64,000 nt of DNA from an uncultured Thermoplasmatales archaeon (lineage in GTDB: Archaea; Thermoplasmatota; E2; DHVEG-1), in contig CAYGAC010000017.1 of assembly GCA_964347865.1 (NCBI GenBank), forward strand, positions 4 through 64,003, written 5' to 3'. Position numbers and translations under genes: made by a program. This document shows positions 35,497 to 52,949 of this stretch, in pieces. Within the stretch, counting starts at the first letter, position 1, and every line of letters begins with the position of its first letter. The notes beneath the pieces were generated by a model. The model searched no databases. It worked only from the letters and a program-made list of their open reading frames with translations, and was not told the DNA's origin.

Positions 35497-35649
35497 TAAT
35501 TAAAAATTTTTACCTACTAAATTGATTATTTAGTAAAATTCAATATTATTAAAGATATTGCTATCTTTATCTGGTTAACCATAGTAGGGAGAAAGGATGA
35601 GGAGAGCAAAAAGAGGTTTGAAATTCAAGAGGTTACAAGATTTCATTCA

Positions 35650-35945
35650 GAAACATCCTATCTTATTTATTCTATTGATAGCGGCAGTTCTTTACATTTT
35701 TTGATATGGATGCCATTTGGTCTACCAGCTTTCTTATATATTTCTATAAGCTCCTTTGGAATATCTATCCATGTTTGTTCTGAAAATTCTTGTCATAAAC
35801 ATTCTCCTATAATCAAATTTGGTAAATTTTTAGCTTGCTCTCCTTGTGGTGGAGGTAAGAGTTCCAGATTCTTTTTAAGATCTGGTAAAATATTATACCA
35901 TCTCTTTGGTAATTCATTAGGTAGAAGATTTACTTGATTTTCCAT
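35650..35945 (-). pseudogene. 5' remnant of a TrpB2-like PLP enzyme gene (in-frame TGA, then decay)
   Basis: Minus-strand translation gives MENQVNLLPNELPKRWYNILPDLKKNLELLPPPQGEQ...stop...QTWIDIPKELIEIYKKAGRP. The WYNILPDL / PPP / IP.E..E.Y...GRP blocks match TrpB2 N-termini. The rest of the gene is absent because iorB ends at 35496. Confidence 0.4.
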
Positions 35946-36155
35946 TTTTTCCCCCAGAAATTAAATTTTACTTTCTTCTCACAAAAAATGAGATATTATA
36001 TTATATTTTTAAATTAAATACAATCTCATTTTCAAAACCAGTAATATAAATCCTCATTTAAATATTCTGAATTTTAAAATCAAATAAGGTTTAATCAATT
36101 TGTATATATCAATAAAAGTAATTATAGGTATATTATTGAGTTAAATTAAAATTGG

Positions 36156-36515
36156 ATGGATATAAATACAAAAAAAGAATATATAGATTTAGTGGTTATA
36201 AGAGAAGTAAACGCAAAATCAATTTTGCGTAAACATAAAAAAATAGATTCATGGTTTTTAACAAATTATAGCATGAATTTATATCGTGGTTGTGCTCACA
36301 ACTGTGTTTATTGTGATGGTCGTTCTGAAAAATATCAAGTAGATGGTGAGTTTGGCAGAGATGTTATTGTAAAAATCAATGCAATAGACCTACTGCACAA
36401 GGAAATTAATCGAAATAATAAAAAAATGCTTTTGAAACTTGGATTTATCGGTTTAGGTGGCGGGGTTGGTGATAGCTATCAAAAATTTAATGGGGTGTTA
36501 TTTTCATATTTTTAG
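36156..36515 (+). pseudogene. truncated radical-SAM (spore-photoproduct-lyase/DNA-photolyase-like) N-terminal fragment
   Basis: NLYRGCAHNCVYCDGR carries the CxxxCxxC radical-SAM cluster in the SplB-like context. It is only 119 aa versus >300 for the family. Confidence 0.45.
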
Positions 36516-36718
36516 TTAAAAAATTGTAAAAACGTCACGTTTATATAAGTGCAATAAATAACGCGGGTTAATGATTAACATGATTTAACACATTATTCAA
36601 TTCTTTCAAAAACTATTTCTTTTTTTAATAGGTGTCAAATAATTTAAAAGTATCCTCAATAACAACTTATTTGTTACAACACTTTTTAACCAACAGCACG
36701 TTATATAGTATCTATATG

Positions 36719-36857
36719 TGTAATGTCAAGTGACATGGGTAACATTTTCCTAAGGAGAAAAAATGTTACCTTTTTGGATAATTATAGAGATTCATTACTG
36801 TTTTTTGGCAAGTCACACTTATACAACTGATGTTACCGATCTAAGTTGACATTACAA
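36719..36857. repeat. ~28-bp imperfect inverted repeat pair bracketing ~90 bp (MITE-like or cruciform)
   Basis: Left arm TGTAATGTCAAgtgacatGGGTAACAT, right arm ATGTTACCgatctaagTTGACATTACA. Confidence 0.45.
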
Positions 36858-36935
36858 TACGTAAAATTATTTAACCACCAAATCCTAAAACATTTCAATA
36901 AATCTCTAGGATAAATATACAAAAATGGTTATTAC

Positions 36936-37247
36936 ATGGTGAAAATATCATACACTGGATTGTGGATTAGGGATCACCTCAGTGAAGTGGGGGAAGATTA
37001 TATCCAGCATATGTCTACAGCATATCGAAAGGAGCTAAAACAAAGTAAAAAAGTTGTTAGCTCATATCATCAGTTTTGCAAATTGATCTATGTACTTAAG
37101 AGCATTGGTCTTATCGAGTTTGTCCGTGAGGAACCTGCCAACAAAAGATGGCTTAAGCCTCGGAAATATTATAGAATAAAACCTGGTAAAGAAGAAAGCG
37201 TGAAATGGAATAATCCACAAAAGCACTATGTGCCTAAAACTACGTAG
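36936..37247 (+). CDS. small basic protein, possible winged-helix DNA-binding
   Basis: ORF track; basic C-terminus; no strong motif. Confidence 0.25.
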   Translation: MVKISYTGLWIRDHLSEVGEDYIQHMSTAYRKELKQSKKVVSSYHQFCKLIYVLKSIGLIEFVREEPANKRWLKPRKYYRIKPGKEESVKWNNPQKHYVPKTT

Positions 37248-37461
37248 GCTTTTTTAGTTTGATAAATGAGCAATTTTCCACATTATATGAATGATAAACA
37301 ATTAGTGATAGAATTTTTAATCGTAGAAGCCGTTTTAAAAAATAATTTATAATTTTTAATTTTACTATTAATCTTTTTATAATTAAATTATAATCAGTTT
37401 TTTTGTATATCTTATTGAAAATAAACAAAATCATAAAAGAGCGTCATCTTTTATATTTTTA

Positions 37462-37487
37462 TTTCGGTTTATACCATTAACCGAAAT
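37462..37487. repeat. hairpin repeat copy E (TTTCGGTT-tataccat-TAACCGAAA)
   Basis: Member of a dispersed palindromic family sharing the stem TTCGGTT/AACCGAA. Confidence 0.5.
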
Positions 37488-37605
37488 ATATTTTTATAGA
37501 TAGAATTTTGGTAAATTTTAAAAAAATTTTTTGTAAATTTTTGATTAACGAAATTATTAAATTCCATTTTTAGATTATATGTTGGGATCAGGAAGGATTT
37601 CAAAT

Positions 37606-37736
37606 CTCATTGTTCGTCACTTTGATTTTTGATTATTCTTTTCTGATCCTATTGTTATTTTACCGTCTTGCTATTTTTACAGCAAAAATTTATATATAAA
37701 CATTTACAAAAAAATAAAATCGTGACGAACAATGAG
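37606..37736. promoter_or_regulatory. 21-bp inverted repeat pair (CTCATTGTTCGTCAC..GATTTT / AAAATCGTGACGAACAATGAG) spanning the promoter and start codon of 37732
   Basis: 15-bp perfect match read directly; the second arm contains the ATG of the downstream ORF. Confidence 0.45.
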
Positions 37737-38091
37737 AAAAAAGACAATTGAAAATAGAAAAATAAAAAATAGGCTGGTAATAAACAACGAATTACCTGAT
37801 CTGGAAATAAAATTTAGAAAATATCTAAAAGAATACCATCCTCATAAGTATCAACAACTATTGGACCTAGAAAAAGAAGAGAAAAAAGAAGTCCACGTTG
37901 TAATCAGTCTTTTTGGTGGTTGTCTCAATGATATAAAGGTTTTTTTCGACATCAAAAAAGCAAGAAAGGAATATAAAAGGCAAATTTTAGAGGCTGGTTT
38001 TACCAGTGTGGAAGAGTACGAAGAGTTGCTGAGAAGTGCCCTTATTGAGAAAGAAGAGCCGCGTTTATGTGAAAATGTAGAGGTGTGTTAG
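37732..38091 (+). CDS. hypothetical protein (first gene of PCNA-containing plus-strand module)
   Basis: Start ATG lies inside a 21-bp inverted repeat; no motif. Confidence 0.3.
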   Translation: MRKKTIENRKIKNRLVINNELPDLEIKFRKYLKEYHPHKYQQLLDLEKEEKKEVHVVISLFGGCLNDIKVFFDIKKARKEYKRQILEAGFTSVEEYEELLRSALIEKEEPRLCENVEVC

Positions 38092-38175
38092 AATGGATAT
38101 CTTGGTATTTGCAGATCGGAACCTTTTAAAGATTGTACATCTAGGAGTCACGTATATGCGGAGGGGTGCATAAAA

Positions 38176-38826
38176 ATGACTAAGAAGGAATTGGAAAATG
38201 ATCATATCTTTATAAGGACCTGGCATGGGGGCCTCGTGGTATTCGATAAAAAAGAGCGTAAAAGCTACAGTATTTTTAACAGCTATGACAGGAATATGAA
38301 TTGTCTCATAGATATGGCTTTGGAGTCGTTTGATGATAAGACCACTAGGGATCAGTTGATAGCAAATATTAAGGCTATCAACGACAAGCATTACCATATA
38401 GCTTTATGCTTTGAAGAGTCAACGGTTAAGAAAATACCCATGAAAATGCTTAATACGGTCGAAGAGTTGCAGCAAAGATTAAAAAGTATACCTGATAAAC
38501 CGGTGAATATTAGGATTACGTCTCCTGATGGTTGGAATACTGTTAACCGGATTAACATTCCACTAATTTTAAAACACAGTGTGGTAAGATGTAGTGGTCA
38601 TTACACGGATGACTATGCCTATGATAATGCGGTTAACTTTGGTAAGGATGCTTCTTCTGACGGCTGTAAGATAGCGATCTTAAATGACATCCAAGGGGAT
38701 GCAGGAAATCATCGGTACATCAAATGCTATTGGGATAACCCTGATAAAGAGTTTATTATCTACTATGGGCAGTGGCTCAGCTACAGAGCAAAACCCTTGG
38801 ACAGCCTTAAAATTATTTTCAAATAA
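38176..38826 (+). CDS. hypothetical protein
   Basis: GGAGGGGTG RBS 6 nt upstream of ATG; no family match. Confidence 0.4.
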   Translation: MTKKELENDHIFIRTWHGGLVVFDKKERKSYSIFNSYDRNMNCLIDMALESFDDKTTRDQLIANIKAINDKHYHIALCFEESTVKKIPMKMLNTVEELQQRLKSIPDKPVNIRITSPDGWNTVNRINIPLILKHSVVRCSGHYTDDYAYDNAVNFGKDASSDGCKIAILNDIQGDAGNHRYIKCYWDNPDKEFIIYYGQWLSYRAKPLDSLKIIFK

Positions 38827-38840
38827 AGAGGGTGGTTTAT

Positions 38841-40130
38841 ATGATTATTAAGCTAAAACAACGGATATTATTGCAAGCTATAGATATACATCGACACTTG
38901 GTAAAAGAGCTCAAAATAGAGTTTCTAAAAAAAGAGATACGTATAAACTCGGTGGACCCAGCACACTATGAAATGGTAATTACTACCATACCCATGTCAG
39001 CATGCGAGAAGTACAACGTAAAGGATAAACTGGACATAGGGATCGATCTAAAAAAACTCAAAGATTTTCTAAGGTTGTTCAAAAAAGACGATGTAATCAC
39101 CTTTGACTATGACTATGATACTAATAGGTTACTCGGTAAACGGGGTTATCTGACACGTGGTCTTGGTCTTTTAGACTTGGCTGGCTGGGACAGTGAAAAA
39201 GTTCCTATACTGGAATTGAAAAATAAACTATCGGTAAATGCTAAGATATTCCACGATGGCTTAAAAGGTGTCATTTCAAATACAAACTATGAAAAAACCT
39301 CTCTCACGGTTGAAAAAGATGCGATTATCCTGGAAAACTATGATGAGGACGAAGGCAACAACAAACAACACCGGTCTGTTGTTATGCAAGACACGGGAGC
39401 TATGAAACTCGATTATTGCAACCCTGGGGATTATACCCTTTTTAGAAGTGATCTCATGATAAAACAGATAAAGGAATACAAGAAATATTTTGAAAGGATA
39501 ACAATTGAAACCAGTCCGAATAACCCGTTACGGATCACTGGGAGTAATGATAATTTACAGGTTGAATACTGGATCGCGCCCATTATAGTAGAAACTGAAG
39601 ACTCAGAACCTGAGCAAAAAACAGAAATTGAAATAGATACAAAAGAATTGAAACTAGAGCCAGAGGTTGAAGAACCAGTGCAGCCAGAGATTTATACATC
39701 TGAAGGTACAAAAGAAGACATTGAACGCACGATCGCGAAAGAGAGACTAGCAAACAAAATACAACAGCTAGAAGAGACAGAGATTGAAAAAAGCATAAAG
39801 CCAGTGGTTGATATGTATGCTGATCGATTGTCAATTCGCAAGCCCAAGGGATTGCCGTATGAAAAACATCAGTGGACCATTGACATGGAAAAAATTAAGA
39901 ATACGTTGGAAAAATCGTTGAATAAAAAGAATAAGAAAGCGCTTTCAAAGATCACAGAATTGCAGGGTTTTGTATTCTTTAAAGTCAACTCTACAAATAA
40001 GATAAAAATTGACAACAATGCGGGTGAAGACATTATCGAACGTTTGTTACCCGAGGGTTTTGTACTCATAGCATGGTACCGCTACCGAACTGATACATGG
40101 ATTGCTCAGACCGTTGAAAAGGTGACATGA
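38841..40130 (+). CDS. divergent PCNA-like sliding-clamp protein with ~180-aa acidic/lysine-rich C-terminal extension
   Basis: Domain 1: IIKLKQRILLQAIDIHRHLVKELKIEFLKKEIRINSVDPAHYEMVITTIP...DIGIDLKKLKDFLRLFKKDDVITF parallels PCNA (fragile-site/LGV.L..L.KIL...D.I.L). Domain 2 ends NDNLQVEYWIAPI, which parallels the PCNA end (VEYKI...YLAPK). The ORF track starts at GTG 38832; ATG 38841 is preceded by GAGGGTGG. Confidence 0.6.
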   Translation: MIIKLKQRILLQAIDIHRHLVKELKIEFLKKEIRINSVDPAHYEMVITTIPMSACEKYNVKDKLDIGIDLKKLKDFLRLFKKDDVITFDYDYDTNRLLGKRGYLTRGLGLLDLAGWDSEKVPILELKNKLSVNAKIFHDGLKGVISNTNYEKTSLTVEKDAIILENYDEDEGNNKQHRSVVMQDTGAMKLDYCNPGDYTLFRSDLMIKQIKEYKKYFERITIETSPNNPLRITGSNDNLQVEYWIAPIIVETEDSEPEQKTEIEIDTKELKLEPEVEEPVQPEIYTSEGTKEDIERTIAKERLANKIQQLEETEIEKSIKPVVDMYADRLSIRKPKGLPYEKHQWTIDMEKIKNTLEKSLNKKNKKALSKITELQGFVFFKVNSTNKIKIDNNAGEDIIERLLPEGFVLIAWYRYRTDTWIAQTVEKVT

Positions 40131-40427
40131 TGTTTACAGGATACAAAGAACGGTATCAGAAATTAAAAAAACAATTGAGAGAATTGGAGGTGAACCATGA
40201 TCATACAATTTGCTAAGGATCTCACAAAAGAGATTCTCAGTATCGGTAAAAAAGCCGTTGATGTGGCATACAATATCGTGAAATAAAAAATGCAGTAGGA
40301 TATGGGCTAAGGGCATAGAGGGCAATTCCCCGTTTATCTATCCCATATTATTTTTTATACTATGCTTTTCTTGGTATTGGAATTATGCCCTCTATGCCAG
40401 AATTTTCATTTTGAATTGTCTGTTTAT

Positions 40428-40589
40428 TCATTCTTTTTTAGTGATGATATTTTCTTTCCTTTTGAATTTGCTGCTGCACCAGCTACAGGTAATCATGGGA
40501 GCTCTGGTTCTTGTTTTGAAAATGTGGCCGCATTTAGGACATTTAACCTTTTGGCGATAGATTCTCTTCTTAACATAGCTTTTTTTCAT
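40428..40589 (-). CDS. unannotated 53-aa zinc-ribbon protein
   Basis: Manual translation of minus strand: MKKSYVKKRIYRQKVKCPKCGHIFKTRTRAPMITCSWCSSKFKRKENIITKKE (CPKCG...CSWC). It is below the 60-aa ORF-track cutoff and overlaps the listed + ORF 40362..40658. Confidence 0.3.
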   Translation of the reverse strand: MKKSYVKKRIYRQKVKCPKCGHIFKTRTRAPMITCSWCSSKFKRKENIITKKE

Positions 40590-40731
40590 CGAGTGCACCT
40601 AACCACCACATCTTATATTTATTACTTATACTTTTCTACTACTTTCTACATGAAGTAATTTATAGAGAAAATTATATATACCACAAGCGATATATTAGTA
40701 TGTTACTCGAAGAAATATAGGAGGTATAAAA

Positions 40732-41523
40732 ATGATGAAAAATAAAAGCAAAAAAATAATACAGGCTGCTGTAGCAATCACTGTTGTCTTAGCATTTGTA
40801 ATGCCAGGATCAGCCGTGATTGCTTACAACGACGACTTAGAATTACCACCTATAGCAAGGGATGAAGTCGCAACAGCGAAACTTGTCTGTCAAATAGAGG
40901 GTGAGAAAGTTATCAAAGAACTCCCCGTGGATACTATCCAAGAGATTATAGAGCTTGGCAAGTCATGTGAACAGGATTTCTACACGATCTATAACAAATG
41001 GGAGACAGATCACGAGGTTGATATCGCCTTTAATAATATTGAACCTTTTTTTAGGGCGCTCGTAGACAGTGGACTAACAGAAAAATCCGTGGAAGATTTA
41101 AACGAATTATTCAGAGATATACGAAACAAGATAGGAAAACCACGCAGGGATCCATCATACCTATACTTGAGTAAGGAGGGAGCACAACCAAGTCTCTACA
41201 TATGGAATGGAATACCACTACCCATCGCCGCCAATGTCATGTGCGGTCTTTACACGGTAGGTACTGGTGTTGTTGGTTACAGTCTGGGAACACATACCAT
41301 ACTTCCAGGACCGGGTTTGGATGTATGGAACACGTGGTTTATGACCGGAGGCAATGGCGGAAGCATAGGATTTCTGGGGGCTACATTAGTTGCGATCAGT
41401 GAATTTGCCATGACGGTAGGGTTCATAGGCATTCTCCTAGGGGTATGGCCCTCGGGTATTATCGCACCGTTTATATTCCAGGTTGGTCTCGCTATGTTGT
41501 ACATTGGCGTATCAGTTCTATAA
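40732..41523 (+). CDS. secreted/membrane-anchored protein (signal peptide + C-terminal hydrophobic helices)
   Basis: AGGAGG RBS; N-terminal signal-like segment; Gly-rich hydrophobic C-terminus. Confidence 0.4.
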   Translation: MMKNKSKKIIQAAVAITVVLAFVMPGSAVIAYNDDLELPPIARDEVATAKLVCQIEGEKVIKELPVDTIQEIIELGKSCEQDFYTIYNKWETDHEVDIAFNNIEPFFRALVDSGLTEKSVEDLNELFRDIRNKIGKPRRDPSYLYLSKEGAQPSLYIWNGIPLPIAANVMCGLYTVGTGVVGYSLGTHTILPGPGLDVWNTWFMTGGNGGSIGFLGATLVAISEFAMTVGFIGILLGVWPSGIIAPFIFQVGLAMLYIGVSVL

Positions 41524-41553
41524 ACACAACATCTCTCTCCTTTATCTTTTACT

Positions 41554-42516
41554 ATGATTCCTGTAGTAAAGGCAATTGTAACCCTTGCAACCGCTGCACT
41601 ATGCATCGTTCCGTTGATATTTACCGGATCTGATGAACCGTCTATACAAGAAATCGTAGTTGAAAACAAGGTTAATCCTGATGTTGAAACATATGAAGAC
41701 ACTATTGCGTTAGATCAGTCAGAGCTGTGTCTGGACCACGAGGTCATACAATACAACATAGTGTTTCATGTTAATGCTACTGTAAAAGTAGATGGTTGTA
41801 TTGGGTATATCATCCGTGATCTACAACCTGTGGCTTATCTTTTTTATCTGACAGATGGGGAACAACTGCTGGTCAATTACTCGTACTGTGCACATGTGCC
41901 GTCTGGGACAATACTGGACATAACGACGAGGAGAAACCATTTTAAGATCGGTGGGAGGATTTTTTATAGGATGTTAAATATTGGGAGGAAAGACACGTTT
42001 GATAAAACGTTCTCTGTTCATGCAGGGGACACTTGGTATCTAACCATTGGGGTCTATTGTAGCATTGGAGAAGAGGAGGTATTTGTTAATTTGAAATCAA
42101 CTAGTCCGTGTATGGAACTTATACCATTGGAGCGACATGATAACATAGGACTTTTTTCGTCGTGGGACAACGGTTTTTCCGGTGCATACTTCGGCGTTAG
42201 AATGATGCCGTTTTTACCGTTTGGTTTTAGCTTTGCAGACAATGTGAAGAAAGAGATTACGACGACAAGAGGGACTGTCGTTTCTTTTCTTAGCGTTGCA
42301 CATCGAAAAGGTGAAACAGTGGTGAGAGCACCTGATGGAACATTGTATGTCAACAACGACAGAGGAGCTGCTGGTTTTATCTATTATGGAAACTTAACTG
42401 GAGTATGGATATTCAAAGCATCCGGTATTGGTTTCCCTTGGAAGCATATTATTACGTTGTTTTATACCGATGTTGATCCTCATATTCGATCAGGGCAGAT
42501 GGTTGTGGGCCTGTAG
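41554..42516 (+). CDS. secreted hypothetical protein with N-terminal signal anchor
   Basis: VTLATAALCIVPLIFTG hydrophobic N-terminus; no family. Confidence 0.4.
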   Translation: MIPVVKAIVTLATAALCIVPLIFTGSDEPSIQEIVVENKVNPDVETYEDTIALDQSELCLDHEVIQYNIVFHVNATVKVDGCIGYIIRDLQPVAYLFYLTDGEQLLVNYSYCAHVPSGTILDITTRRNHFKIGGRIFYRMLNIGRKDTFDKTFSVHAGDTWYLTIGVYCSIGEEEVFVNLKSTSPCMELIPLERHDNIGLFSSWDNGFSGAYFGVRMMPFLPFGFSFADNVKKEITTTRGTVVSFLSVAHRKGETVVRAPDGTLYVNNDRGAAGFIYYGNLTGVWIFKASGIGFPWKHIITLFYTDVDPHIRSGQMVVGL

Positions 42517-42610
42517 GTGAACTCCAATGCTTCTCCTGGCAAAGTGAAATGGAGACAGTTACGGCACAACCGTCTAGGTTAATTTTGATAAAATACGGAT
42601 TAGATGTAGC

Positions 42611-42808
42611 ATGAATGAATATGACCGTGGATTTGAAGATGCTTTAGATCTTGTACATGATTATATACAAAGGTACAAAGGTAAACTTCCAGAGGATTTT
42701 GTGTTGTCGATTAAAGAGATTATTCAGAATGTGAGGGACAGAAGAATTGCAGAGTTAAAAAAGGAGCTTAGCTTAATTGATGAAGATCTCCCTGCAAATA
42801 ATAAATAG
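42611..42808 (+). CDS. small hypothetical protein
   Basis: ORF track only. Confidence 0.2.
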   Translation: MNEYDRGFEDALDLVHDYIQRYKGKLPEDFVLSIKEIIQNVRDRRIAELKKELSLIDEDLPANNK

Positions 42809-42924
42809 ACAGTGATGAGCAAACTATCAGCTCTCTTTAAAAGTCTTATATCTATAAGGTATTAAAACACAAAAACGTGCAAAACTTCCCGATAACTTGT
42901 TTATTGTTTGTATAATATCTGTAA

Positions 42925-42983
42925 GAGATTGAAATGTCTAGATTTCGGTTTAATATATAAACCGAAATAACAAAGTTTTCAAT
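42925..42983. repeat. nested hairpin repeat copy A (AGATTGAAA...TTTCGGTTTA-atata-TAAACCGAAA...TTTCAATCT)
   Basis: Two-tier inverted repeat read directly; lies ~170 bp from the 3' end of the IS200-type tnpA. Confidence 0.55.
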
Positions 42984-43156
42984 CTCAACCTTAATCTGAT
43001 GAATTGACTGTTTGAACGGTTTCCGCATACGTTCCCAATATTACGACATCTACTAAAGCTATAGTAATCCAACTCTCCCCTTTTTTTCTTTTATAAAAAA
43101 TCCCCAAGAATACCACTGGTTTCAACCAGTGGATGAATTGGGGTCTAGCTTTTTCT

Positions 43157-43720
43157 TCACCTCGTAAAATCTCCAATCTTCGCTTGACCGGTAGGGTCTC
43201 CAAAGATACTATACTCAAATACATCTTTTCCATCTTGTTCAAGGATATATCTCTTTACTGCATCTTGACTGACATGCCCTGCACTGCCACAGTAGTATCC
43301 TCGTGCCCACAGATAGTTAAATTGTTTCCAATGCTTGGGGTATCCTAGATATTTTAACTCAGGATAAAATTCCCGTAATAAACGTGATGATACACCTTTC
43401 AATTGTTTCACAATTACTGAAGGAATATGAGTTGGTTTCGCACCAACAAACAGATGGAGGTGATCTGGCATGATCTCTAGTGCAAGAGCATTCAATTGAA
43501 GTATTTTACATTCCTTCGTAAGTATGATGTTTAATGTCTTTTTTACATCGCCTTCAAGTACTAACTTTCTATATTTTGGAATCCAAACAAGATGATAATT
43601 GATGTTGTACTTGCAATGAAAACCACTTTTTACCGTTGCAATCTTTACATCCAGCTGATACTTGTTTGGATTGAAATGCGGGTAATTGTGTAACATGAAG
43701 GATGACGGTGCGCATACCAT
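43157..43720 (-). CDS. tnpA: IS200/IS605-family HUH (Y1) transposase TnpA, with N-terminal extension
   Basis: YHLVWIPKYRKLVL, MPDHLHLFV (HuH motif), LKGVSSRLLREF, LWARGYYCGSAG (catalytic Tyr). The true start is probably an internal Met giving a protein of ~150 aa. Confidence 0.8.
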   Translation of the reverse strand: MVCAPSSFMLHNYPHFNPNKYQLDVKIATVKSGFHCKYNINYHLVWIPKYRKLVLEGDVKKTLNIILTKECKILQLNALALEIMPDHLHLFVGAKPTHIPSVIVKQLKGVSSRLLREFYPELKYLGYPKHWKQFNYLWARGYYCGSAGHVSQDAVKRYILEQDGKDVFEYSIFGDPTGQAKIGDFTR

Positions 43721-43945
43721 CGCTTACTACTACTCGACCCTGTGGGTCGATATGTTTTAAGCAAGATGGTTTGCGTTCCTTCATGTTACTCATAAAAAGA
43801 TACAGTATGGGATACCCCCATCTTTAGATGGATTCATTTTGGGAGGATGTCATTTTTAATAATTATATCTAAGAAATTAGCCCACTGAAACTGGTTTTGT
43901 TACATAAGTTACAATAATATTATAGAAAAATTTAAATTAAAACAA

Positions 43946-45583
43946 TTGATTACAATTTTTAAAATATATATTTGTGGAGGGAAAAATTTGAGAGATAGAA
44001 TTATTAAAAAATGGGTGGTATTAGGAATAATACTATTATTTGTTGGAGTAAGCGTCATACCATCAACTGGAATAGTGGAAAAACCGAGTAAATCAACCAT
44101 TGGCAGAGCTATTTTGTATGTAGGTGGTGATGGACCAGGGAACTATACTAGTATTCAGGATGCTGTTGATAACGCTAGTGATGGGGATACAGTGTTTGTC
44201 TTTGATGATTCTTCTCCGTATTATGAAAATGTTGTAGTGGATAAATCAATAAAGCTGATAGGCGAAAACCGAGATACCACTGTTATTGATGCTGAAGGAA
44301 GTGGTGGGGACGTTGTCTATCTTTCTGGTGGTGGGGCAACCGTAAGCGGGTTTACGATTCAAAACTGTCAACTTATTACGGGTGCTGAAGGAATTGATAT
44401 ACAATCAAACTATAACACCGTCATGAATTGCCGTATTTTAAACAACACGGATGGCATTGCCCTTTGGTCAAACGGTAACAAAATCTCTGGTAACATAATC
44501 TCGAACAGTGTAGATGCGGCTATATACATTGATGGTGCTAACAGCAATACTATCACAGGTAACACCATTTCAAACAATCAACATAACGGCATTATGTTTT
44601 ATATGTCCAGTTACAATACCATCTCAGATAACAACATCTCAAATAACGGCTGGTTTGGTATAGTCGCGGGTATGTCCGACTACAACACCGTCTCAGGCAA
44701 TGATATCATTTCGAACAACTATGATGGCATTAACCTTATTTTTTGCAACAACAACACTATTACAGGTAATACTATTGTGGACAACGACGACGGCATCTTC
44801 TTACGAGAATCCTGTGACGACAATCAAATTTTTGAAAACAACATCATCTCGAACAATTGGAGAGGCGTAGACCTTCGTTATTCCAGTTCCAACAACAACG
44901 TTATTTACCATAACAACATCATTGACAACACGGTAAACAATGCTTATGATGAAGGAAACAATATCTGGGATGATGGCTATCCCTCTGGTGGGAACTACTG
45001 GTCTGATTATACAGGAGAAGACGCTAATGGCGATGGCATAGGAGACACTCCTTATCCTATCCCTGGTGGTGACAGCAAAGATAGATATCCGTTCATGAAC
45101 GAAAGTGGGTGGCTGAATCCTCCGATTGCAAACTTCACTTATTCGATAGACGAATTAACAGTGACATTTGATGGTTCATCATCTTATGATTCTGATGGAG
45201 AAATCATTTCTTACGAATGGGATTTCGATGACGGAACATATGGAAATGGAATGATTGTTAGCCATACCTATTCTGCACCTGAAATATATAATGTGACACT
45301 TACAGTAACAGATGATGATGACCTAGAGGACAGCATAACAAAAACTATTGAGGTTGAATGGTCACCAGAGTTTGAAAAAACCTTTATTTTTGGCAGGATT
45401 GATAATCTAACTATACCAGGAAATGTTATCACATTTAATGCGGTGAATATACGTGTCATCAAGTTTTCACCATTTCAGATACTTGCTTACAAATCAGGAG
45501 AGTTAATAACAATATCAAAGGATTATTTTGGTTTGGTTGGAGCAAGGTTCATATTTGCTTTGTGTGATTCGTATATGGGATGA
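43946..45583 (+). CDS. secreted right-handed beta-helix (NosD/pectate-lyase-like) surface protein with PKD domain
   Basis: Signal anchor WVVLGIILLFVGVSVIPSTG; ~10 repeats of the N.I..N..GI type; PKD segment YEWDFDDGTYGNG...YNVTLTVTDDDD. A likely alternative start is TTG 43988 preceded by GGAGGG. Confidence 0.6.
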   Translation: MITIFKIYICGGKNLRDRIIKKWVVLGIILLFVGVSVIPSTGIVEKPSKSTIGRAILYVGGDGPGNYTSIQDAVDNASDGDTVFVFDDSSPYYENVVVDKSIKLIGENRDTTVIDAEGSGGDVVYLSGGGATVSGFTIQNCQLITGAEGIDIQSNYNTVMNCRILNNTDGIALWSNGNKISGNIISNSVDAAIYIDGANSNTITGNTISNNQHNGIMFYMSSYNTISDNNISNNGWFGIVAGMSDYNTVSGNDIISNNYDGINLIFCNNNTITGNTIVDNDDGIFLRESCDDNQIFENNIISNNWRGVDLRYSSSNNNVIYHNNIIDNTVNNAYDEGNNIWDDGYPSGGNYWSDYTGEDANGDGIGDTPYPIPGGDSKDRYPFMNESGWLNPPIANFTYSIDELTVTFDGSSSYDSDGEIISYEWDFDDGTYGNGMIVSHTYSAPEIYNVTLTVTDDDDLEDSITKTIEVEWSPEFEKTFIFGRIDNLTIPGNVITFNAVNIRVIKFSPFQILAYKSGELITISKDYFGLVGARFIFALCDSYMG

Positions 45584-45610
45584 TGGAATTGTAGATTTGA
45601 AGGGGGAAAA

Positions 45611-45817
45611 ATGCCAGATTTACTTATTAAATTCCTAGCAACCCTAGGTGTGATTGCCCTATCACTCATATGGTATTTTTACCTCTATCCAGCAATGAAA
45701 AAAGAATATGCGAGGAAAGGATGGACATGGAGACGAATATATGATATTGAGGTGGATAATAGGAGATCGTATAGGGAGTTGGTTGGAGTGATTATAGCGA
45801 CAATTAGGATGAAATAG
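45611..45817 (+). CDS. small membrane protein
   Basis: One TM helix; GGGGGAAAAATG RBS. Confidence 0.3.
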   Translation: MPDLLIKFLATLGVIALSLIWYFYLYPAMKKEYARKGWTWRRIYDIEVDNRRSYRELVGVIIATIRMK

Positions 45818-45892
45818 GGTTTATAAAGAAATTAATGTTACTCATCGTAAAATTTAGGAAAACTTATTAGGATTTTTTATATACAAATTTGT

Positions 45893-46099
45893 ATGGCTAT
45901 TGAGGCTATATTTAAATTCATTGCAAAACACCCTGCATCTATGTGTGTTGCTGGTGGAATATTACTTTTGTTATTATCTCCAATTTATGAGAATTTAACT
46001 AGTGGTGACCCAAGGTTTTGGCAAGGTGGATGGGTACTGGTAGCCATTGGTGTAATATTAAATGTAATATGGTTAATAACTAGAAAAAAAATTCTTTAA
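45893..46099 (+). CDS. small two-TM membrane protein
   Basis: Two hydrophobic helices. Confidence 0.3.
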   Translation: MAIEAIFKFIAKHPASMCVAGGILLLLLSPIYENLTSGDPRFWQGGWVLVAIGVILNVIWLITRKKIL

Positions 46100-46113
46100 T
46101 AATAACTTGATTG

Positions 46114-46455
46114 TTAATCTTCTAATTCAGTAAAAAACTTAATCGTCTTAAAGATGGCATCGACTTGTTTCCACTTTTCTTTATTCTCTTGTTCTCTTCG
46201 TTTAAGTTCAAGCTTCTCTCTTTCAATTTGCTCGTTTGTTGGTTTCCCCTTCTCTAATCTATTAACTTGTTTCTGTAATATCTTAATTTGTTTGCTTTGA
46301 TTCTCTGTAATCTTAGTGAGTAATAATTGACTTTTGTAACTTTGTTTCAAATTATATCTTAAACTAAATAAGGCGATTATTAAACTTACAACCATTATAA
46401 TTAATCCAATAATGGCAATCCAAATATTTATTTCAACCATATGATTCACCATCAA
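46114..46455 (-). CDS. membrane-anchored coiled-coil protein
   Basis: N-terminal TM, then heptad-rich QLLLTKITENQSKQIKILQKQVNRLE. Confidence 0.35.
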   Translation of the reverse strand: MMVNHMVEINIWIAIIGLIIMVVSLIIALFSLRYNLKQSYKSQLLLTKITENQSKQIKILQKQVNRLEKGKPTNEQIEREKLELKRREQENKEKWKQVDAIFKTIKFFTELED

Positions 46456-46475
46456 TGGAAAATATAGCAGGTAGA

Positions 46476-47258
46476 CTATTGAAATGGCTCGAATAGAACA
46501 TAAAAACCTCTTTGTTTTAATTGTCGTTTTATTCTTGTTATATACTCTAAAAACTCTTCTTTGGGTTCAATCCAACCAACATATTCATTTAATATCTCGT
46601 AATATTTTTCTCTAAAATTACGTGTATCTTCTAAATTCTCATAAACTATTGATATTCCTGTTAGTAACTGACTGATGCTTTCATTAGATACTATTTGATG
46701 TTGCCAATTATTTATTACAATATCTAAAATTGTTCTATGTACTCTAAATAATTTTAATTGTTGAGCATCGGTCATATAATCCTTGTAGATTAATGCTTTT
46801 CGTATATTTTCTAAATGAAGCCATGTCGTAAATATGTTGATATACTGTAAATGACTAAGATTTATTGGTTTTTTATTAGCTATTGGTGTAAATAAATATT
46901 CTTGTATTCCATAGAGATACTCTTTCCTAATTTCTTGAATACTGATTATACATTGTTGTATCTCTGCGTCTTTTATAGTATCCATTCTTTCTTTTGATTG
47001 TTCCGATATTTCTTTAGCCTTTTCAGAAATTGTTAGAGATTCTTCTGCTATCTCTCCAGATTTTAATGCAATATGTAAAGAAATAATACCTAATGAAATA
47101 GATAAAAGAGCAAGGAGAAAAGGTACAATAACTAAATCAATATTTGTATATTTAGAGATTAAGAAACAAATTAATGAGATAATAGTTATTATGCCAATGA
47201 TAATGAGAATCCATCCAAATGCACGCCATAATTTCTCTGAATTCATCATACAGGACAT
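46476..47258 (-). CDS. membrane-anchored hypothetical protein
   Basis: Two N-terminal TM helices + soluble domain. Confidence 0.4.
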   Translation of the reverse strand: MSCMMNSEKLWRAFGWILIIIGIITIISLICFLISKYTNIDLVIVPFLLALLSISLGIISLHIALKSGEIAEESLTISEKAKEISEQSKERMDTIKDAEIQQCIISIQEIRKEYLYGIQEYLFTPIANKKPINLSHLQYINIFTTWLHLENIRKALIYKDYMTDAQQLKLFRVHRTILDIVINNWQHQIVSNESISQLLTGISIVYENLEDTRNFREKYYEILNEYVGWIEPKEEFLEYITRIKRQLKQRGFYVLFEPFQ

Positions 47259-47433
47259 AATTTTAGATGATTATTAATTTGTGGTGTCATCTGTAATATA
47301 TGGATTAATTTATAAGAAATTATGAAATAGCTACTATTGTAATTGTATTATTAAAAGAAGAAATCAAAGCTTGACTCATCACTATGCCGAAGCGACACAA
47401 GGTAAGGACGGAGGTTTGGGATATTTCCTTCTG

Positions 47434-48510
47434 TTAAGATTTTGCTTTTTTTCTTTCTTTTTTTAACTTTCTATACATTATAATTGTACTTACTGTTCCT
47501 ATTATTCCAACAGCAATGCTAGCTATTGTAACAAGAATATTAATCAAACTTAAATTAAATGAAAATTCTAGCCTATGACTTGGAATAACAAAAATTAGAC
47601 ACATTGCTATAACAAATATAACCAATACAAATAACCCAATCTTTTCGTTCCTATTTAGCCTCTTTCCTTTTATTGACCTTATTGAAGTCAGTAACTTGTG
47701 TAGTTTAGTGTAATCAATAAATTTAGTTACAAGAGAATCATCAGATATTTCTTTCAATCCAAATATCCTATTTCCAATTACCTTAATGAATGGAATAATA
47801 TCTGAATTTGTTAAGTATTTGAATCCGTCCTTAATAAAAGGAAAATATGAGATACTATTATCATTTGCTGATGCAAATATGTATTGTAACGAAAATAACT
47901 TTTTAGATTTATAGATTGTTGTTTTTTTATCAATACTTCTGAATCTAAAAAAATTCATATCGTTACATATATAAATACCAATTGACCGTGTTAGTACATT
48001 ATTTTCGTCTTTGCTTTGTGATGGAAGCTTGAAACTGATGATGTTTTTCTTGATTTCGTATTTTGGAGGTCGGTCGGGTACTGTTAAAAATAATGATGCT
48101 AAAAACCCTAGCATTCCACCAGAGAGTAGTCCACCTAAAAAGAATACAATAACTAACCCGGCTCCTATTAGATAATCGTTTAAAGTTATTATATAATTTT
48201 CAGGCATTGATAATATAGTTTGATGGAGCACCATAATGTAGGATACCAAATAATTAATAATGAACACAGGAAAATACAAGAACCAACCGCGATTAGCAAT
48301 CTTAAAATGAAGCGCAATTAATATCGAAAAAAAACCTATCCATAAAGGATAAGCAAGTAAATACCATAGGATTGATAGTCCAGATTTAGAGTCCCATTGA
48401 AGAATTGTTATAAACAACAAAATAAAATTAATTAATCCTAACCAATAGAAGAATTTATTATCTACTTCTAATCCTCTAATCTTTTTCATCTGGATTTGGA
48501 ATTGTTGCAA
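47434..48510 (-). CDS. polytopic membrane protein
   Basis: At least 6 hydrophobic helices. Confidence 0.45.
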   Translation of the reverse strand: MQQFQIQMKKIRGLEVDNKFFYWLGLINFILLFITILQWDSKSGLSILWYLLAYPLWIGFFSILIALHFKIANRGWFLYFPVFIINYLVSYIMVLHQTILSMPENYIITLNDYLIGAGLVIVFFLGGLLSGGMLGFLASLFLTVPDRPPKYEIKKNIISFKLPSQSKDENNVLTRSIGIYICNDMNFFRFRSIDKKTTIYKSKKLFSLQYIFASANDNSISYFPFIKDGFKYLTNSDIIPFIKVIGNRIFGLKEISDDSLVTKFIDYTKLHKLLTSIRSIKGKRLNRNEKIGLFVLVIFVIAMCLIFVIPSHRLEFSFNLSLINILVTIASIAVGIIGTVSTIIMYRKLKKERKKAKS

Positions 48511-48524
48511 TTCTAATAAAATTT

Positions 48525-49541
48525 ATGATTAAGGTTATTATTTTGGCAGTATTAATAATTACATACCTTCTTTGTCTAATATATTATGTAATTTTTTTAA
48601 AAAAGGAACAAATACCAAATATTAGGAATTTAATTCAATGTATGATGAGTAAACCTCAATTGATATATAACGAAGCTGAATTGAAAAAATATTTTGATGG
48701 AATAAAAGATAGATTCTTAAAAACCAAAAGATATATTTCAATTTTAGGTTTTTGGTTTACCATCTTAGTATTTTCTGGCGTTGGTATTGTTCCGGCATGG
48801 TTTATAAATACGAATATCGATTTCTTGAATTATTCTCCATATCAGCCTTTCTTTTTGTTATTCACTTGGATTATATTTGCCTGTATAGAAATTTATCCGC
48901 TTTTCTGGCTCTCAAAAAAAATTGTTAAAACATCACTCAAGCCTTATGATAATTTGTTTTGCATTGCATTTTCTGCTTATCAAAATATAAAATATGAAGA
49001 TGCAGAACTATTGAAAAAAGCTTCGCAACTATTGAAAGATGTTAAATTCAATACTCTGAAAACGAATATCGACAGTGCATATAAAGTTCCTGGATTAAAA
49101 AAGGAATGGATAAAAAGAATCGATAAACTTCTAAGTATCAATAAAGAATATGTTATACCTCGATTAGATGATGGTATTGAAATAGAAGAGATTAAACCAT
49201 TAGTTGGAAATTTCGCTCAATTTCTTTATTCACAAAACAATGAAAATATAAAACTTCAAGTTGAAGTTGTAAAAGATTCAGTAATCCGTGCAGTTTGTTT
49301 AGAGAAATATGAAAAAAAGAAACTTGATATTAAAAGTCAAACCTATTTCTCTCAAAATCCAATAATTAGTATGTTATCGTTTACTTTTAGTATAGCTGTC
49401 CTTTTAGTTGTAACAGGTTATATATTACTTAAAATTAATATTATAATTCCGGGTACTGAACCCGTTTCGTATTATACTATTGGTTCAATTTCAATATCAA
49501 TTTTGGGTGGTATTGGTCTGGCGAATCTATGTAAAAAATAA
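48525..49541 (+). CDS. polytopic membrane protein
   Basis: N-terminal and C-terminal TM helices. Confidence 0.45.
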   Translation: MIKVIILAVLIITYLLCLIYYVIFLKKEQIPNIRNLIQCMMSKPQLIYNEAELKKYFDGIKDRFLKTKRYISILGFWFTILVFSGVGIVPAWFINTNIDFLNYSPYQPFFLLFTWIIFACIEIYPLFWLSKKIVKTSLKPYDNLFCIAFSAYQNIKYEDAELLKKASQLLKDVKFNTLKTNIDSAYKVPGLKKEWIKRIDKLLSINKEYVIPRLDDGIEIEEIKPLVGNFAQFLYSQNNENIKLQVEVVKDSVIRAVCLEKYEKKKLDIKSQTYFSQNPIISMLSFTFSIAVLLVVTGYILLKINIIIPGTEPVSYYTIGSISISILGGIGLANLCKK

Positions 49542-49612
49542 AGCAGAAGTAACGCAATAAACTGCATTCTATGCCAGACAAGAGCGTTTTTATAGGATTA
49601 GATATTGTGATT

Positions 49613-49792
49613 TTATTCTTCTACCTCTAACTCTGCGCTTGGTGCGTTGCGTCTAACTGAATCTATACTGTTGAGGCATCCATCTTTCGTCTCATATCCT
49701 TCGCTTTGTGCAATTATCTCATTATTATCTGCTTTTAAATGGAAATACCATTGTCCATCCTTTTCTGATTTCCAACATTTAAATTTTCCCAT
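49613..49792 (-). CDS. YegP/DUF1508-family small protein
   Basis: MGKFKCWKSEKDGQWYFHLKADNNEIIAQSEGYETKDGCLNSIDSVRRNAP parallels the UPF0339 pattern (F.I.KD..G.W.F.LKA.NGEIIA.SEGY..K..C...IESV..NA). The ORF track extends 21 codons further upstream to 49855. Confidence 0.5.
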   Translation of the reverse strand: MGKFKCWKSEKDGQWYFHLKADNNEIIAQSEGYETKDGCLNSIDSVRRNAPSAELEVEE

Positions 49793-50141
49793 TTTCAAAA
49801 ACCTCCTTTTTAGGTTAAATATGTAATATATTATCGACTTATAAATGAATCCCATAAAGTCTTTATACAGTATTTAGAAAAATTGGAATTTATACCATAA
49901 ATATTATGATTCTTTTAAATCAAAAGATTTTTTCGTTCTTGATTGTAATATTAGAATTCCACCTCTCGAACTTTAGTTCTCATGAAATGCTGGATGATAT
50001 TTTCTCACTTGTTGTTGAATTTCTTCCCTCCCAATTTTTTGAGAAAATTTATATTGAAATTATTTCTTTTATTTATTATAACTTGCCCACGAAAACTCGC
50101 TCATGTGTAACTTTTTCCCGTCCATGGATAACCCCTAAAAA

Positions 50142-50164
50142 TTCGGTTAATGCGATTAACCGAA
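50142..50164. repeat. hairpin repeat copy B (TTCGGTTAAT-gcg-ATTAACCGAA)
   Basis: Same stem family; preceded by CTAAAAA as in copy C. Confidence 0.5.
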
Positions 50165-50413
50165 CTGATTATATCAATGGTTTCTTTTTGTGCAAAAATT
50201 ACCTCAAGAAACACTTAAAAAATGCCGCCAGGTAGCCTAATTGAACATGGATAAAAATATATTGATAATTGGAATAGTAATTCTGTTCCAATCATCGTTA
50301 ATGATTTTAGACTAAGACTAGCGTCATGAGGCTGTATTTAAAGTTTATAAGGAGAAATGGTGTCTATAATCAGTATTTATGATTAGATGATGGAACAATG
50401 CCTAGCAGGTTTT

Positions 50414-50668
50414 TCAGTTATTGATAGCTTTTTCGATTATTTCTATTTCCTTTTCGTTTAGACTATATAACCTACATATAAGCGAATCTAATTTTTGATC
50501 TGTATAGTTTATTTGACGTTGTAATATTTTCTTTTGTGTAGATAAGTTGATTTTTTTCATTTCTTTTTGTAAGATAATCATTTTTTTAACTTGTTGTTTT
50601 CTCTTTGTCACAAATTCTAAAAAGTTGCTAAAAGAATAATCTATCTCTTTCCACCAAGCGGAACCCAC
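50414..50668 (-). pseudogene. possible C-terminal remnant of an N6-adenine DNA methyltransferase (type IIG/BREX PglX-like tail)
   Basis: C-terminus ...LDSLICRLYSLNEKEIEIIEKAIN resembles the very common methylase tail D.LVY.LYGLTEEEI.IIE. Only 84 aa. Confidence 0.25.
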
Positions 50669-50819
50669 CGGATGAGCTTCAAAAATAATTACTCATTAGA
50701 TAGCCTCCAAAAACCGAAATGGATTAATTCCTAAAAATTCTATTTTTTGATAAAATCTAACACATATAAAATTTCTCAAGTATTTTTAATTAATTGATCT
50801 TTATTAATAGATGTAAAAC

Positions 50820-51980
50820 TTAAGATACTCGTTCTTTCAATGTATTTAATTCATCACCTTTGATATTAAAATTATTAGCAATATCGATCATTTCTCTTAA
50901 GATTACTTTGATTTCATCTGATAAATTCTTCTGTAATGTAACATTAATTAAATCAATAAAATCATCGACATATAATCCAAGTTTGTCTTGATTCTTTTTA
51001 TAAGCCCAATCTTTAATTTCAATAGTAGCTTCTAAATCAAGTTTGCATCTTTTTAAAATTTCAATATTAACATCTTTCGTTCCATATTTTATTTTATTAA
51101 TGTAGGCTTGCATCATTGCTTGTTTTTCAACAAAATTTAGATTTGTTAATGCAGTCATTTGTCTACTAGATTGAATTGCTAGATTATATGAAAAAGCAGC
51201 GATTGAAATTGATAGAATTGCCAATCCTATTGATGGGTTTATTAAGAACAAAATAACAATTCCAAATATCATTAGGAGGGTACCTGCAACAATATAATAT
51301 ATTTCAGAAATCGATCTTCTCATAATTATCTTTCTCCTTTGAGACCCTGTTTTTCTATTATTTGATTTTTTTCTACAATTAATATTAAAATATATTTGAA
51401 CAACCATTGCCGACAAGGTAAATAGTCCTAACGCAAGTATACCATAAGTTAACGCACGATGTTCATAACTCATTCTTGTTTGCAAGGCAGTGCTTTCTGT
51501 ATGAATCCTGATTTTCTCACCAGATGTAGATCGAAAATCCGGATCGTTTGCAGAGGGAGGATGATAAAAACTAATTTCATACCAAAGCCAATATTCCTTT
51601 GATTCATCTACATGGATATCTAAAGCTTTAGACCATTCATATGAGCGTTTTAACTTTATATTAAAATTTACTTCATATAAAGTCCGTTCAACATCTCCAA
51701 AACCCAACATTATATATATTGTAATATTCATTGGATATTGAAGCTCATTTTCAGGTTCAATAATAATAATTGTATTTATTGGTTCTAATTCTGAGAATAA
51801 ATAGTCGTTTGTTGATGCAATAATATTGATATAAACATCGGTGTCATTTATTAGTGCTATTGGAAAATCACGTGTTCTTTCTTTGTCAATCAAGGTAATT
51901 GCCCCTGTATATGAAAAATAAACACCAATTACTAAGCAAACTAAGATTACGGTTAAGACAATTATATGTTTTTTATTCAT
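50820..51980 (-). CDS. membrane protein (signal anchor, extracytoplasmic domain, 3 TM, cytoplasmic C-terminal domain)
   Basis: Last gene of the TIR-headed operon; topology read from hydrophobic segments. Confidence 0.45.
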   Translation of the reverse strand: MNKKHIIVLTVILVCLVIGVYFSYTGAITLIDKERTRDFPIALINDTDVYINIIASTNDYLFSELEPINTIIIIEPENELQYPMNITIYIMLGFGDVERTLYEVNFNIKLKRSYEWSKALDIHVDESKEYWLWYEISFYHPPSANDPDFRSTSGEKIRIHTESTALQTRMSYEHRALTYGILALGLFTLSAMVVQIYFNINCRKKSNNRKTGSQRRKIIMRRSISEIYYIVAGTLLMIFGIVILFLINPSIGLAILSISIAAFSYNLAIQSSRQMTALTNLNFVEKQAMMQAYINKIKYGTKDVNIEILKRCKLDLEATIEIKDWAYKKNQDKLGLYVDDFIDLINVTLQKNLSDEIKVILREMIDIANNFNIKGDELNTLKERVS

Positions 51981-51986
51981 ACATCT

Positions 51987-52865: not shown

Positions 52866-52949
52866 TTGAATATAGCTTGATATAATTTAACCTCCAGATT
52901 CCATTTATAGGATTATTATAAAAACGAAAACCCATATAAAACATAATCG

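Follow-up and report, generated by a model that had tools for sequence, protein, structure and literature searches.

The stretch analyzed here, hereafter the window, comprises 64,000 nucleotides of contig CAYGAC010000017.1 (assembly GCA_964347865.1) from an uncultured Thermoplasmatales archaeon. At 38841..40130 its plus strand carries a gene for a divergent sliding clamp of the PCNA type, which is extended by a long linker and a conserved C-terminal domain (CTD). Translation of this PCNA-CTD gene from the ATG at 38841 affords a protein of 429 amino acids (aa), and translation from a GTG at 38832 would afford 432 aa. Since all 19 members of the family alignment start at the former codon (MxIKxKQ), the 429-aa protein is the likely product. 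An earlier interpretation of this DNA from its letters only (the sequence-only reading) had found a real open reading frame (ORF), but had combined the coordinates of the ATG start with the length of the GTG product. The peptides that it quoted (KLKDFLRLFKKDDVITF, VEYWIAPI, and EPEQKTEIEIDTKELKLEPEVEEPVQPE) all occur in the translated ORF. The C-terminal extension of about 180 aa is also real and consists of two parts, a predicted disordered acidic stretch and a folded domain. In the following, L numbers designate related loci or contigs that were compared with the window, and P numbers designate proteins related to the clamp or to the CTD.

Residues 1–250 (38841..39590, plus strand) make up the PCNA domain, with the two lobes of the clamp fold, an interdomain loop, and a C-terminal "YWIAP" tail. 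This region matches Pfam PCNA_N with 25.4 bits (cut-off 20.3) and aligns with positions 5–242 of the 245-position NCBIfam model NF002222 ("DNA polymerase sliding clamp") with E = 3.4e-24. A phmmer search against PDB sequences returned the PCNA of A. fulgidus (1rwz, E = 2.2e-11, residues 20–248), followed in rank by PCNAs from Sulfolobus, Haloferax, and Thermococcus. An AlphaFold2 model of the protein, built on the 19-member family alignment, reached a predicted local distance difference test score (pLDDT) of about 90 for residues 1–250, less than 50 for residues 253–340, and about 80–88 for residues 341–429. In this model, the interdomain loop (residues ~110–127) is free of secondary structure. 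Comparison of the model with the PDB by Foldseek gave only PCNAs among the best 50 matches listed, with a best E value of 3.8e-18 and template-modeling scores, normalized to the target, of 0.81–0.87. Because the sequence matches and the predicted structure agree, we regard the PCNA fold as confirmed, and we are confident that residues 1–250 correspond to a complete, highly divergent PCNA fold as predicted by these methods. The earlier proposal of a PCNA-like clamp with both domains recognizable is therefore borne out by Pfam, phmmer, NCBIfam, AlphaFold2, and Foldseek alike, and so is the expectation that modeling of residues 1–250 would return a PCNA fold. A relationship to Rad9 of the 9-1-1 checkpoint clamp was considered and rejected, since the Pfam Rad9 model scores 18.2 bits (cut-off 25, E = 0.0019) and covers residues 127–182 only.

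In its overall layout, with a long disordered tail after a PCNA fold, the protein is reminiscent of UL42, UL44, and BMRF1, and the gene cassette described below encodes no clamp loader. Both points would suit a non-ring processivity factor of the UL42/UL44 type, that is, a PCNA fold with a long C-terminal tail that binds DNA directly as a monomer or dimer and does so without a loader. We consider this explanation quite improbable for two reasons. First, non-ring viral factors differ from ring clamps by a raised isoelectric point (pI) and a positive DNA face (Kazlauskas & Venclovas 2011, PMC3201878), whereas the PCNA domain of the present family has a negative net charge (−3 to −17) in all members but one of the 19 (P0017: +13). 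The basic residues are kept at K6, R18, K72 (invariant), K/R74, R78, K81, and K82, and also at K135, K142, K208, K214, and K215, so that at least 12 positions on the four predicted channel helices hold lysine or arginine in 16–19 of the 19 sequences. By the criterion of PMC3201878, this pattern of an acidic domain with basic channel helices reads as the signature of a ring clamp. Second, the strand that precedes the interdomain loop (GxLTRxMGLxD) is highly conserved in the family. We take this strand to correspond to the subunit-interface strand of cellular PCNAs.

The gene is intact in all seven copies examined. Nei–Gojobori estimates of the ratio of nonsynonymous to synonymous substitution rates (dN/dS), computed for close pairs only, amount to 0.10–0.33 for the clamp domain, 0.21–0.64 for the linker, and 0.04–0.21 for the CTD. 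By these estimates, constraint is strongest on the CTD and exceeds that on the clamp domain itself. An intact gene under purifying selection, together with the finding that the family hidden Markov model (HMM) detects no other PCNA within the 64-kb window, would be in line with the housekeeping PCNA of this lineage carrying a lineage-specific tail. However, the best NCBIfam model, NF002222, scores only 85.7 bits against a cut-off of 207, and TIGR00590 scores 24.3 bits against 99.1. Moreover, a scan of a genome collection found copies in one Thermoplasmatota metagenome-assembled genome (MAG) alone, CSMAG_1320 (GCA_030601705.1), and this MAG contains five intact paralogues on five contigs. These copies sit in unrelated host contexts, some of them beside integrases, and share 50–58% identity between groups. 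A search of 5.8 billion clusters returned 20 homologues, most of them covered over the full length; source names are lacking across this family, save one JGI label that reads "proliferating cell nuclear antigen". Since the gene is multi-copy, non-syntenic, element-borne, and far below the NCBIfam cut-offs, the housekeeping explanation is effectively excluded on the evidence of the window and of the related loci. The same evidence (a family of about 20 members, integrase contexts, five copies in one MAG) upholds the view of the sequence-only reading that the protein is an accessory clamp from a mobile element.

The linker spans residues ~251–322 (39591..39806, plus strand) and falls into the part of the model with the lowest pLDDT. 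Across the family it measures 39–221 aa, contains 18–40% aspartate plus glutamate, and carries a net charge of −9 to −25 in 16 of 19 members (+1 to +8 in P0013, P0016, and P0017). The linker can be described as fast-evolving, predicted disordered, and mostly acidic. Two longer relatives, P0014 and P0015 (582–586 aa), contain an extra domain of about 100 aa inside the linker, and P0015 also contains a zinc-ribbon segment. The PCNA of locus L019 (2027–3175) ends in a different small beta-rich domain (...YLVGEIVAVTKTGYLILFRG...) after an acidic linker of its own. Because this clamp bears a different domain, the acidic tether seems to be a general attachment point for "cargo" in this clamp subfamily.

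The CTD itself (residues 323–429, ~105 aa; 39807..40127, plus strand) is conserved and basic, with a net charge of +4 to +12 in 16 of 19 members. Modeled alone it reached a pLDDT of 82.5 and a predicted template-modeling score of 0.73, which supports the earlier impression of an extra globular segment at the end of the tail. After a lead-in of the form KPKxxPYxKxQW[TS]xxME, the predicted order of secondary structure elements is alpha-alpha-beta-beta-alpha-beta-beta, with the motifs GFVFF and VLIAWY...WIAQTV; invariant columns of the family alignment fall within this domain. We found no match for this domain in Pfam, PHROGs, PADLOC, or NCBIfam, and a CTD profile returned nothing meaningful from all PDB sequences. 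Foldseek also gave nothing significant, either from the PDB (best E = 0.088) or from BFVD (best E = 0.0099 at a root-mean-square deviation of 9.4). The KGFVFF motif and a topology that resembles beta-alpha-beta-beta-alpha-beta prompted the idea of an RNA recognition motif (RRM). This idea was dropped, since hhalign against nine RRMs gave a probability of 0.13% with only 11 GFVFF/RNP1-like columns aligned, and Pfam did not report an RRM either; the topology remains a mere lead.

The pairing of an acidic linker (16 of 19 members) with a basic domain could alternatively be understood as an autoinhibitory or DNA-mimic device. Such a device might belong to a decoy or poison clamp, which would enter into mixed trimers with the PCNA of the host or tie up proteins with a PCNA-interacting protein (PIP) box, and thereby arrest or redirect host replication. 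Targeting of PCNA by mobile elements is known in Thermococcales, and the strong divergence from cellular PCNAs (24% identity to 1rwz) could be cited for the same idea. Taken together, we judge these proposals to have little chance of being correct: the conserved basic residues of the channel argue for genuine encirclement of DNA, and a toxic product is hard to square with a single MAG that harbors five intact copies subject to purifying selection.

Searching 1.84 billion cluster representatives with a CTD HMM returned 18 proteins, about half of which are clamp fusions. The other carriers are free-standing proteins of 100–170 aa, which form a "GWGG" subfamily (P0028 and P0030–P0035). In L019, the free-standing CTD P0028 is encoded two genes downstream of a 382-aa PCNA that belongs to the same subfamily as the window clamp (E = 1e-87 to the family HMM), with a 56-aa gene in between. 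In L012, a 334-aa clamp and a 276-aa protein ending in a CTD are encoded by separate genes with an ATGA stop/start overlap, and a further protein of this locus joins a zinc-finger region to a GWGG-type CTD. On a 44-kb virus-like contig (L016–L018), the free-standing CTD P0037 shares a same-strand block with genes for DNA ligase, an RFC/Rad17-like AAA+ protein, MCM, RusA, an HNH protein, an integrase, and a methyltransferase. A 246-aa ORF near this CTD in L016 (10870–11610) was examined as a possible second PCNA and discarded, as it matched nothing in the PDB, in Pfam, or with the family HMM. Because the CTD is fused to the clamp in some elements and encoded separately but adjacent to it in others, this domain is functionally linked to the clamp and to DNA replication or repair in mobile elements.

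Nucleotide and protein comparison with the related loci revealed that the clamp gene belongs to a conserved plus-strand cassette (~36857–40349) with the order 103-aa gene, non-coding region with hairpins, 119-aa gene, 216-aa gene, and PCNA-CTD gene. The first gene (36936..37247, plus strand; family F8) codes for a 103-aa protein that occurs at the same position in L004, L008, and L009 with 67–82% identity. The Pfam hints for this protein are weak (TFIIE_alpha, E = 0.017; DUF6356, E = 1.6e-4), and it is probably a DNA binder of the winged-helix (winged helix-turn-helix-like) type. The 119-aa protein (37732..38091, plus strand; family F2) is 57–61% identical to its counterparts in L004, L007, L008, and L009, and its family extends to the larger elements L002, L012, L014, and L019. 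Pfam, PHROGs, PADLOC, and NCBIfam gave no match for this protein. By its distribution, the 119-aa gene is a core companion of the clamp gene throughout this family of elements. The 216-aa protein (38176..38826, plus strand; family F5) is encoded directly upstream of the clamp and is 79–82% identical in L007, L008, and L009. This family is also present in L010 and L014, and has seven homologues in the 5.8 billion clusters. Its C-terminal half is almost invariant (W..TVN..C.GHYTDDY..D..N...S..CK..L.D...K.YWDN..K.FIIYYGQWLSY), and in P0044 and P0045 the conserved domain of this type stands N-terminal to another domain. Neither the PDB nor Pfam provided a match for the 216-aa protein, which we regard as a candidate clamp partner or enzyme. 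Homology between its conserved half and the CTD was considered and rejected (hhalign probability 0.06%).

Two ORFs beyond the clamp gene recur in only part of the related loci. A 56-aa zinc-ribbon ORF with a CxxC...CxxC pattern (40428..40598, minus strand; family F13) is 50–79% identical in L001, L004, and L007. It matches an MJ0042-type CXXC model of NCBIfam (E = 3.7e-4) and, weakly, two PADLOC models (PDC-S64, E = 8.8e-6; Cas12f/TnpB zinc-finger region, E = 1.2e-3). This ORF could encode a small independent protein, or it could be a TnpB-derived relic near the IS200 tnpA gene. A 263-aa protein with a signal peptide and multiple transmembrane segments (40732..41523, plus strand; family F6) follows the clamp in some elements. 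Its N-terminal parts are found after the clamp in L001 and L004 with 65–70% identity, at the point where these contigs end, and it does not follow the clamp in L009, L010, or L011, so that its membership in the cassette is variable.

The AT-rich non-coding region between the 103-aa and the 119-aa genes (37248..37731, 484 base pairs (bp)) is conserved at 74–82% nucleotide identity in six related elements and contains three conserved inverted repeats. The repeat at 37433–37454 is a small hairpin (ATAAAAGA..TCTTTTAT) in which the loop changes and the stem is kept. That at 37462–37486 (TTTCGGTT..AACCGAAA) has arms that are invariant in seven elements. The third repeat (37583–37652), upstream of the 119-aa gene, is a long hairpin with an outer stem of ~15 bp, and its pairing is kept in six elements by U-A to U-G changes and two compensatory pairs. 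This variation fits a structure formed by RNA of the plus strand.

The hairpin at 37462–37486 has the form TTCGGTT-(loop of ~9–11 nucleotides)-AACCGAA, and further copies of this form are present in the window at 42943–42967, 50141–50165, 57708–57732, and 62117–62141. All five copies share the stem alone, with different loops and flanks. The second copy (42943..42967) lies between a 65-aa ORF and the IS200 tnpA gene, and its flanks do not align with those of the 37462 copy. Hairpins are thus present at 37462–37486 and 42943–42967, whereas zero would be expected by chance. The same hairpin is found exactly once in each of L001, L002, L004, L007, L008, L009, L014, and L019, and in most cases it separates the integrase side from the clamp operon. 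Judged by this conservation, the 37462 hairpin is a cis-element inside the cassette that is shared by this family of elements, and an origin, an operator, or a single-strand initiation site are candidates for its role. The sequence-only reading had placed the clamp in a block bounded by two hairpins. This description has to be revised, since the 37462 copy lies inside the cassette, which starts at ~36857 and includes the 103-aa gene. We also rejected the idea that the hairpins are duplicated attachment sites, because the copies in the window have only the stem in common and because the conserved cassette encloses the one at 37462. An Rfam search over 35500–51000 gave sub-threshold matches only. 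One of these, CRISPR-DR2 at 42906–42935 on the minus strand (29.4 bits against a gathering threshold of 37, E = 0.046), adjoins the 42943 hairpin; it is probably a chance match, and no repeat array is evident there.

The surroundings of the cassette agree in several respects with their first description. The six plus-strand ORFs at 37732–42808 are present, as are the IS200 tnpA gene downstream (43157–43720, minus strand; Y1_Tnp, E = 6e-33) and a gene remnant upstream, which is a truncated radical-SAM gene (36156–36515, 119 aa) reduced to the CxxxCxxC region. A 27-nucleotide inverted repeat (36719–36745/36830–36856, 85% complementary) ends where the homology to related cassettes starts (36857). 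On the other side, L010 and L011 (88% nucleotide identity) pass from window position 40294 straight into 50216–50399. Relative to these loci, the window thus has a 9.9-kb indel (40295–50215) with a direct repeat, TAAAAAATGC, at 40285–40294 and 50215–50224 and with GAAA just upstream of this repeat at both ends. The indel segment holds the zinc-ribbon ORF, membrane proteins, the IS200 tnpA gene, a beta-helix/PKD protein, and more membrane proteins. It could have arisen by insertion or by deletion, since the order of clamp, zinc ribbon, and 263-aa gene is also found in L001 and L004. Further downstream, the region 46000–58000 has a GC content of 26–30% and is full of membrane proteins that could not be annotated. 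A TIR-domain protein is encoded at 53959–54882 (minus strand; TIR_2, E = 4.7e-15), an ORF at 52950–53294 (minus strand) is HNH-like by eye only, and one at 58280–58495 (minus strand) is AbrB/MazE-like, also by eye only. The region 46000–58000 looks like a variable or defense island, possibly with remnants of further elements.

The gene content of the related loci is consistently that of mobile elements. L001 and L004, which are contigs of CSMAG_1320, carry one or more tyrosine integrases, RadC, and LPD29 ahead of the clamp, and in L009 of the same MAG the clamp is directly followed by host genes for a glycosyltransferase, a methyltransferase, and a flippase. Small ORFs together with genes for a tyrosine integrase, a CxxCxxCC protein, a glutaredoxin, and N6/N4 methyltransferases make up a backbone that is common to L002, L003, L012, L013, L019, and L020. 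Overall, an integrative-element setting with a recombinase was found for L001, L002, L003, L004, L012, and L019. YopX is also among the recurrent neighbors of the clamp family, besides RadC, LPD29, integrases, methyltransferases, and many small ORFs. In the vicinity of the clamp family, no capsid or terminase gene was seen.

The company of RadC, LPD29, and YopX in the larger relatives raises the question of whether the protein is part of a conflict system. In such a system, the clamp would be a platform or sensor on DNA within an anti-defense, establishment, or defense module of the element, with the CTD as effector or adaptor. Domains of this sort are typical of polyvalent or early conflict modules in phages and conjugative elements (PMC5512222), the compact cassette has no recognizable replication enzyme, and TIR and HNH-like genes lie downstream in the window. 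Yet PADLOC matched neither the clamp nor the CTD nor any of the 103-, 119-, and 216-aa genes, and its hits to the 56-aa ORF are weak. Furthermore, the free-standing CTD P0037 is found among ligase, RFC-like, and MCM genes, and the clamp has kept its ring-type features. We therefore consider a role in conflict unlikely, and the alternative of a defense system or scaffold that the sequence-only reading had raised found no support in the PADLOC results.

On balance, we favor with moderate confidence the interpretation that the protein is a sliding clamp belonging to an archaeal integrative element, that this clamp serves to replicate the element, and that it carries a tethered adaptor. The element is probably a plasmid- or virus-like element of Thermoplasmatota. 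According to this interpretation, the PCNA part would form a trimeric ring that is loaded onto element DNA by the host RFC. The host is the proposed source of the loader because the cassette encodes none; the larger elements of the L016 type encode an RFC-like ATPase of their own. Once loaded, the ring could use its putative PIP pocket to hold the host polymerase and the enzymes of Okazaki-fragment processing; host enzymes are the suggested ligands because the cassette proteins lack a PIP box. The three flexibly tethered CTDs would act as built-in adaptors, for which the candidate ligands are an element factor (the 119- or the 216-aa protein), a protein of the host replisome, and DNA of the element, for instance the conserved hairpin region. 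The net effect would be to bias host replication capacity toward the element. This interpretation agrees with the literature: "shell" PCNAs come from integrated elements, for example PCNA2 of TKV3 (PMC3914693), and small archaeal viruses that encode only PCNA are expected to recruit the host replisome (bioRxiv 10.1101/2025.02.15.638363).

A more specific version of this interpretation makes the CTD a targeting module, which would bind either the hairpin or origin of the element (TTCGGTT-loop-AACCGAA) or the host polymerase or loader, and would render the clamp self-addressing. This version is tentative, and we see it as a possibility with rather modest prospects. If it were true, three CTDs on acidic leashes would deliver the ring to element DNA or retain it there, and the free-standing CTD paralogues of larger viruses would do the same job in trans.

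Several observations weigh against a replicative clamp of an integrative element. A scan of all cassette proteins found no canonical PIP-box or AlkB homologue 2 PCNA-interacting motif (APIM), so that the PIP-box partners anticipated in neighboring ORFs are missing. The compact cassette was found to contain no replication initiator, helicase, primase, or polymerase, and a tblastn search whose queries comprised every ORF from the related loci, integrases among them, detected no integrase in the window. The sole indirect hint at a closed homotrimer is the conserved GxLTRxMGLxD strand. RadC, LPD29, and YopX, which neighbor the clamp in relatives, are typical of establishment or anti-defense modules and not strictly of replication. 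Finally, IMG/VR, the INPHARED phages, and the PLSDB plasmids contain no relatives of either the CTD or the PCNA domain, which leaves the type of element undefined. Because the cassette lacks replication enzymes and the window lacks an integrase, the copy described here may be a remnant or may rely on factors in trans. By its gene content, it would be an element that has been reduced or has decayed, or else a compact cassette for which other functions are supplied in trans. Since its genes are under purifying selection, it can be argued that the cassette is still functional.

PCNAs of mobile elements are already known. The family described here, in which the clamp is permanently joined to a strongly conserved domain, offers a concrete and testable handle on how such a clamp is steered to element DNA as opposed to host DNA, and on the "tool-belt" idea. 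The CTD founds a new small domain family, and the elements make up a new and rare integrative family, associated with Thermoplasmatota, that has a conserved hairpin as cis-element. Should the CTD bind DNA or a polymerase, it might be of use as a modular processivity tag. None of the papers retrieved by literature searches describes a clamp-CTD fusion of this kind.

Among known systems, a close likeness is to PCNA2 of Thermococcus kodakarensis (TK0582), an extra divergent PCNA that is encoded near tyrosine recombinases on the integrative element TKV3 (PMC3914693). PCNA2, like the clamp from the window, is distinct from the essential clamp of the cell (Raymann et al. 2014, PMC3914693). However, "shell" PCNAs are plain proteins of ~250 aa, whereas the present family adds an acidic linker of 39–221 aa and a conserved domain of ~105 aa, and it moves together with a cassette of its own, in which a non-coding region bears hairpins. 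PCNAs are also encoded by archaeal tailed viruses, such as the haloarchaeal DHTV-3, -5, and -8 and the Asgard viruses Opia, Nidhogg, and Skoll; the parts of their descriptions that we could compare do not mention a C-terminal domain (bioRxiv 10.1101/2025.02.15.638363, PMC11529989). Unlike these viral genes, the present family has no capsid or terminase genes in sight and no match in IMG/VR or INPHARED. With the herpesvirus proteins UL42, UL44, and BMRF1, the clamp shares a PCNA fold, a long and partly disordered C-terminal extension, and an origin from a mobile genetic entity. In contrast to these basic, non-ring DNA binders, the tails of which contain no conserved folded domain, the window clamp combines an acidic PCNA domain and ring-type features with a conserved globular domain at the end of the tail. 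Cellular archaeal PCNA (1rwz, NF002222) has the same fold over the 245-residue model, basic channel helices, an interdomain loop, and an "LAP"-like tail. Compared with the cellular protein, the present family is multi-copy, element-linked, extended, only ~24% identical, and far below the family cut-offs. We conclude that the protein is a PCNA by fold and not an orthologue of the cellular clamp, and that it belongs with the known PCNAs of mobile elements. What is new in this family is the tether with a conserved domain that has no relatives among known folds and families, the alternation between fused and separate forms of clamp and CTD, and a hairpin cassette of its own.

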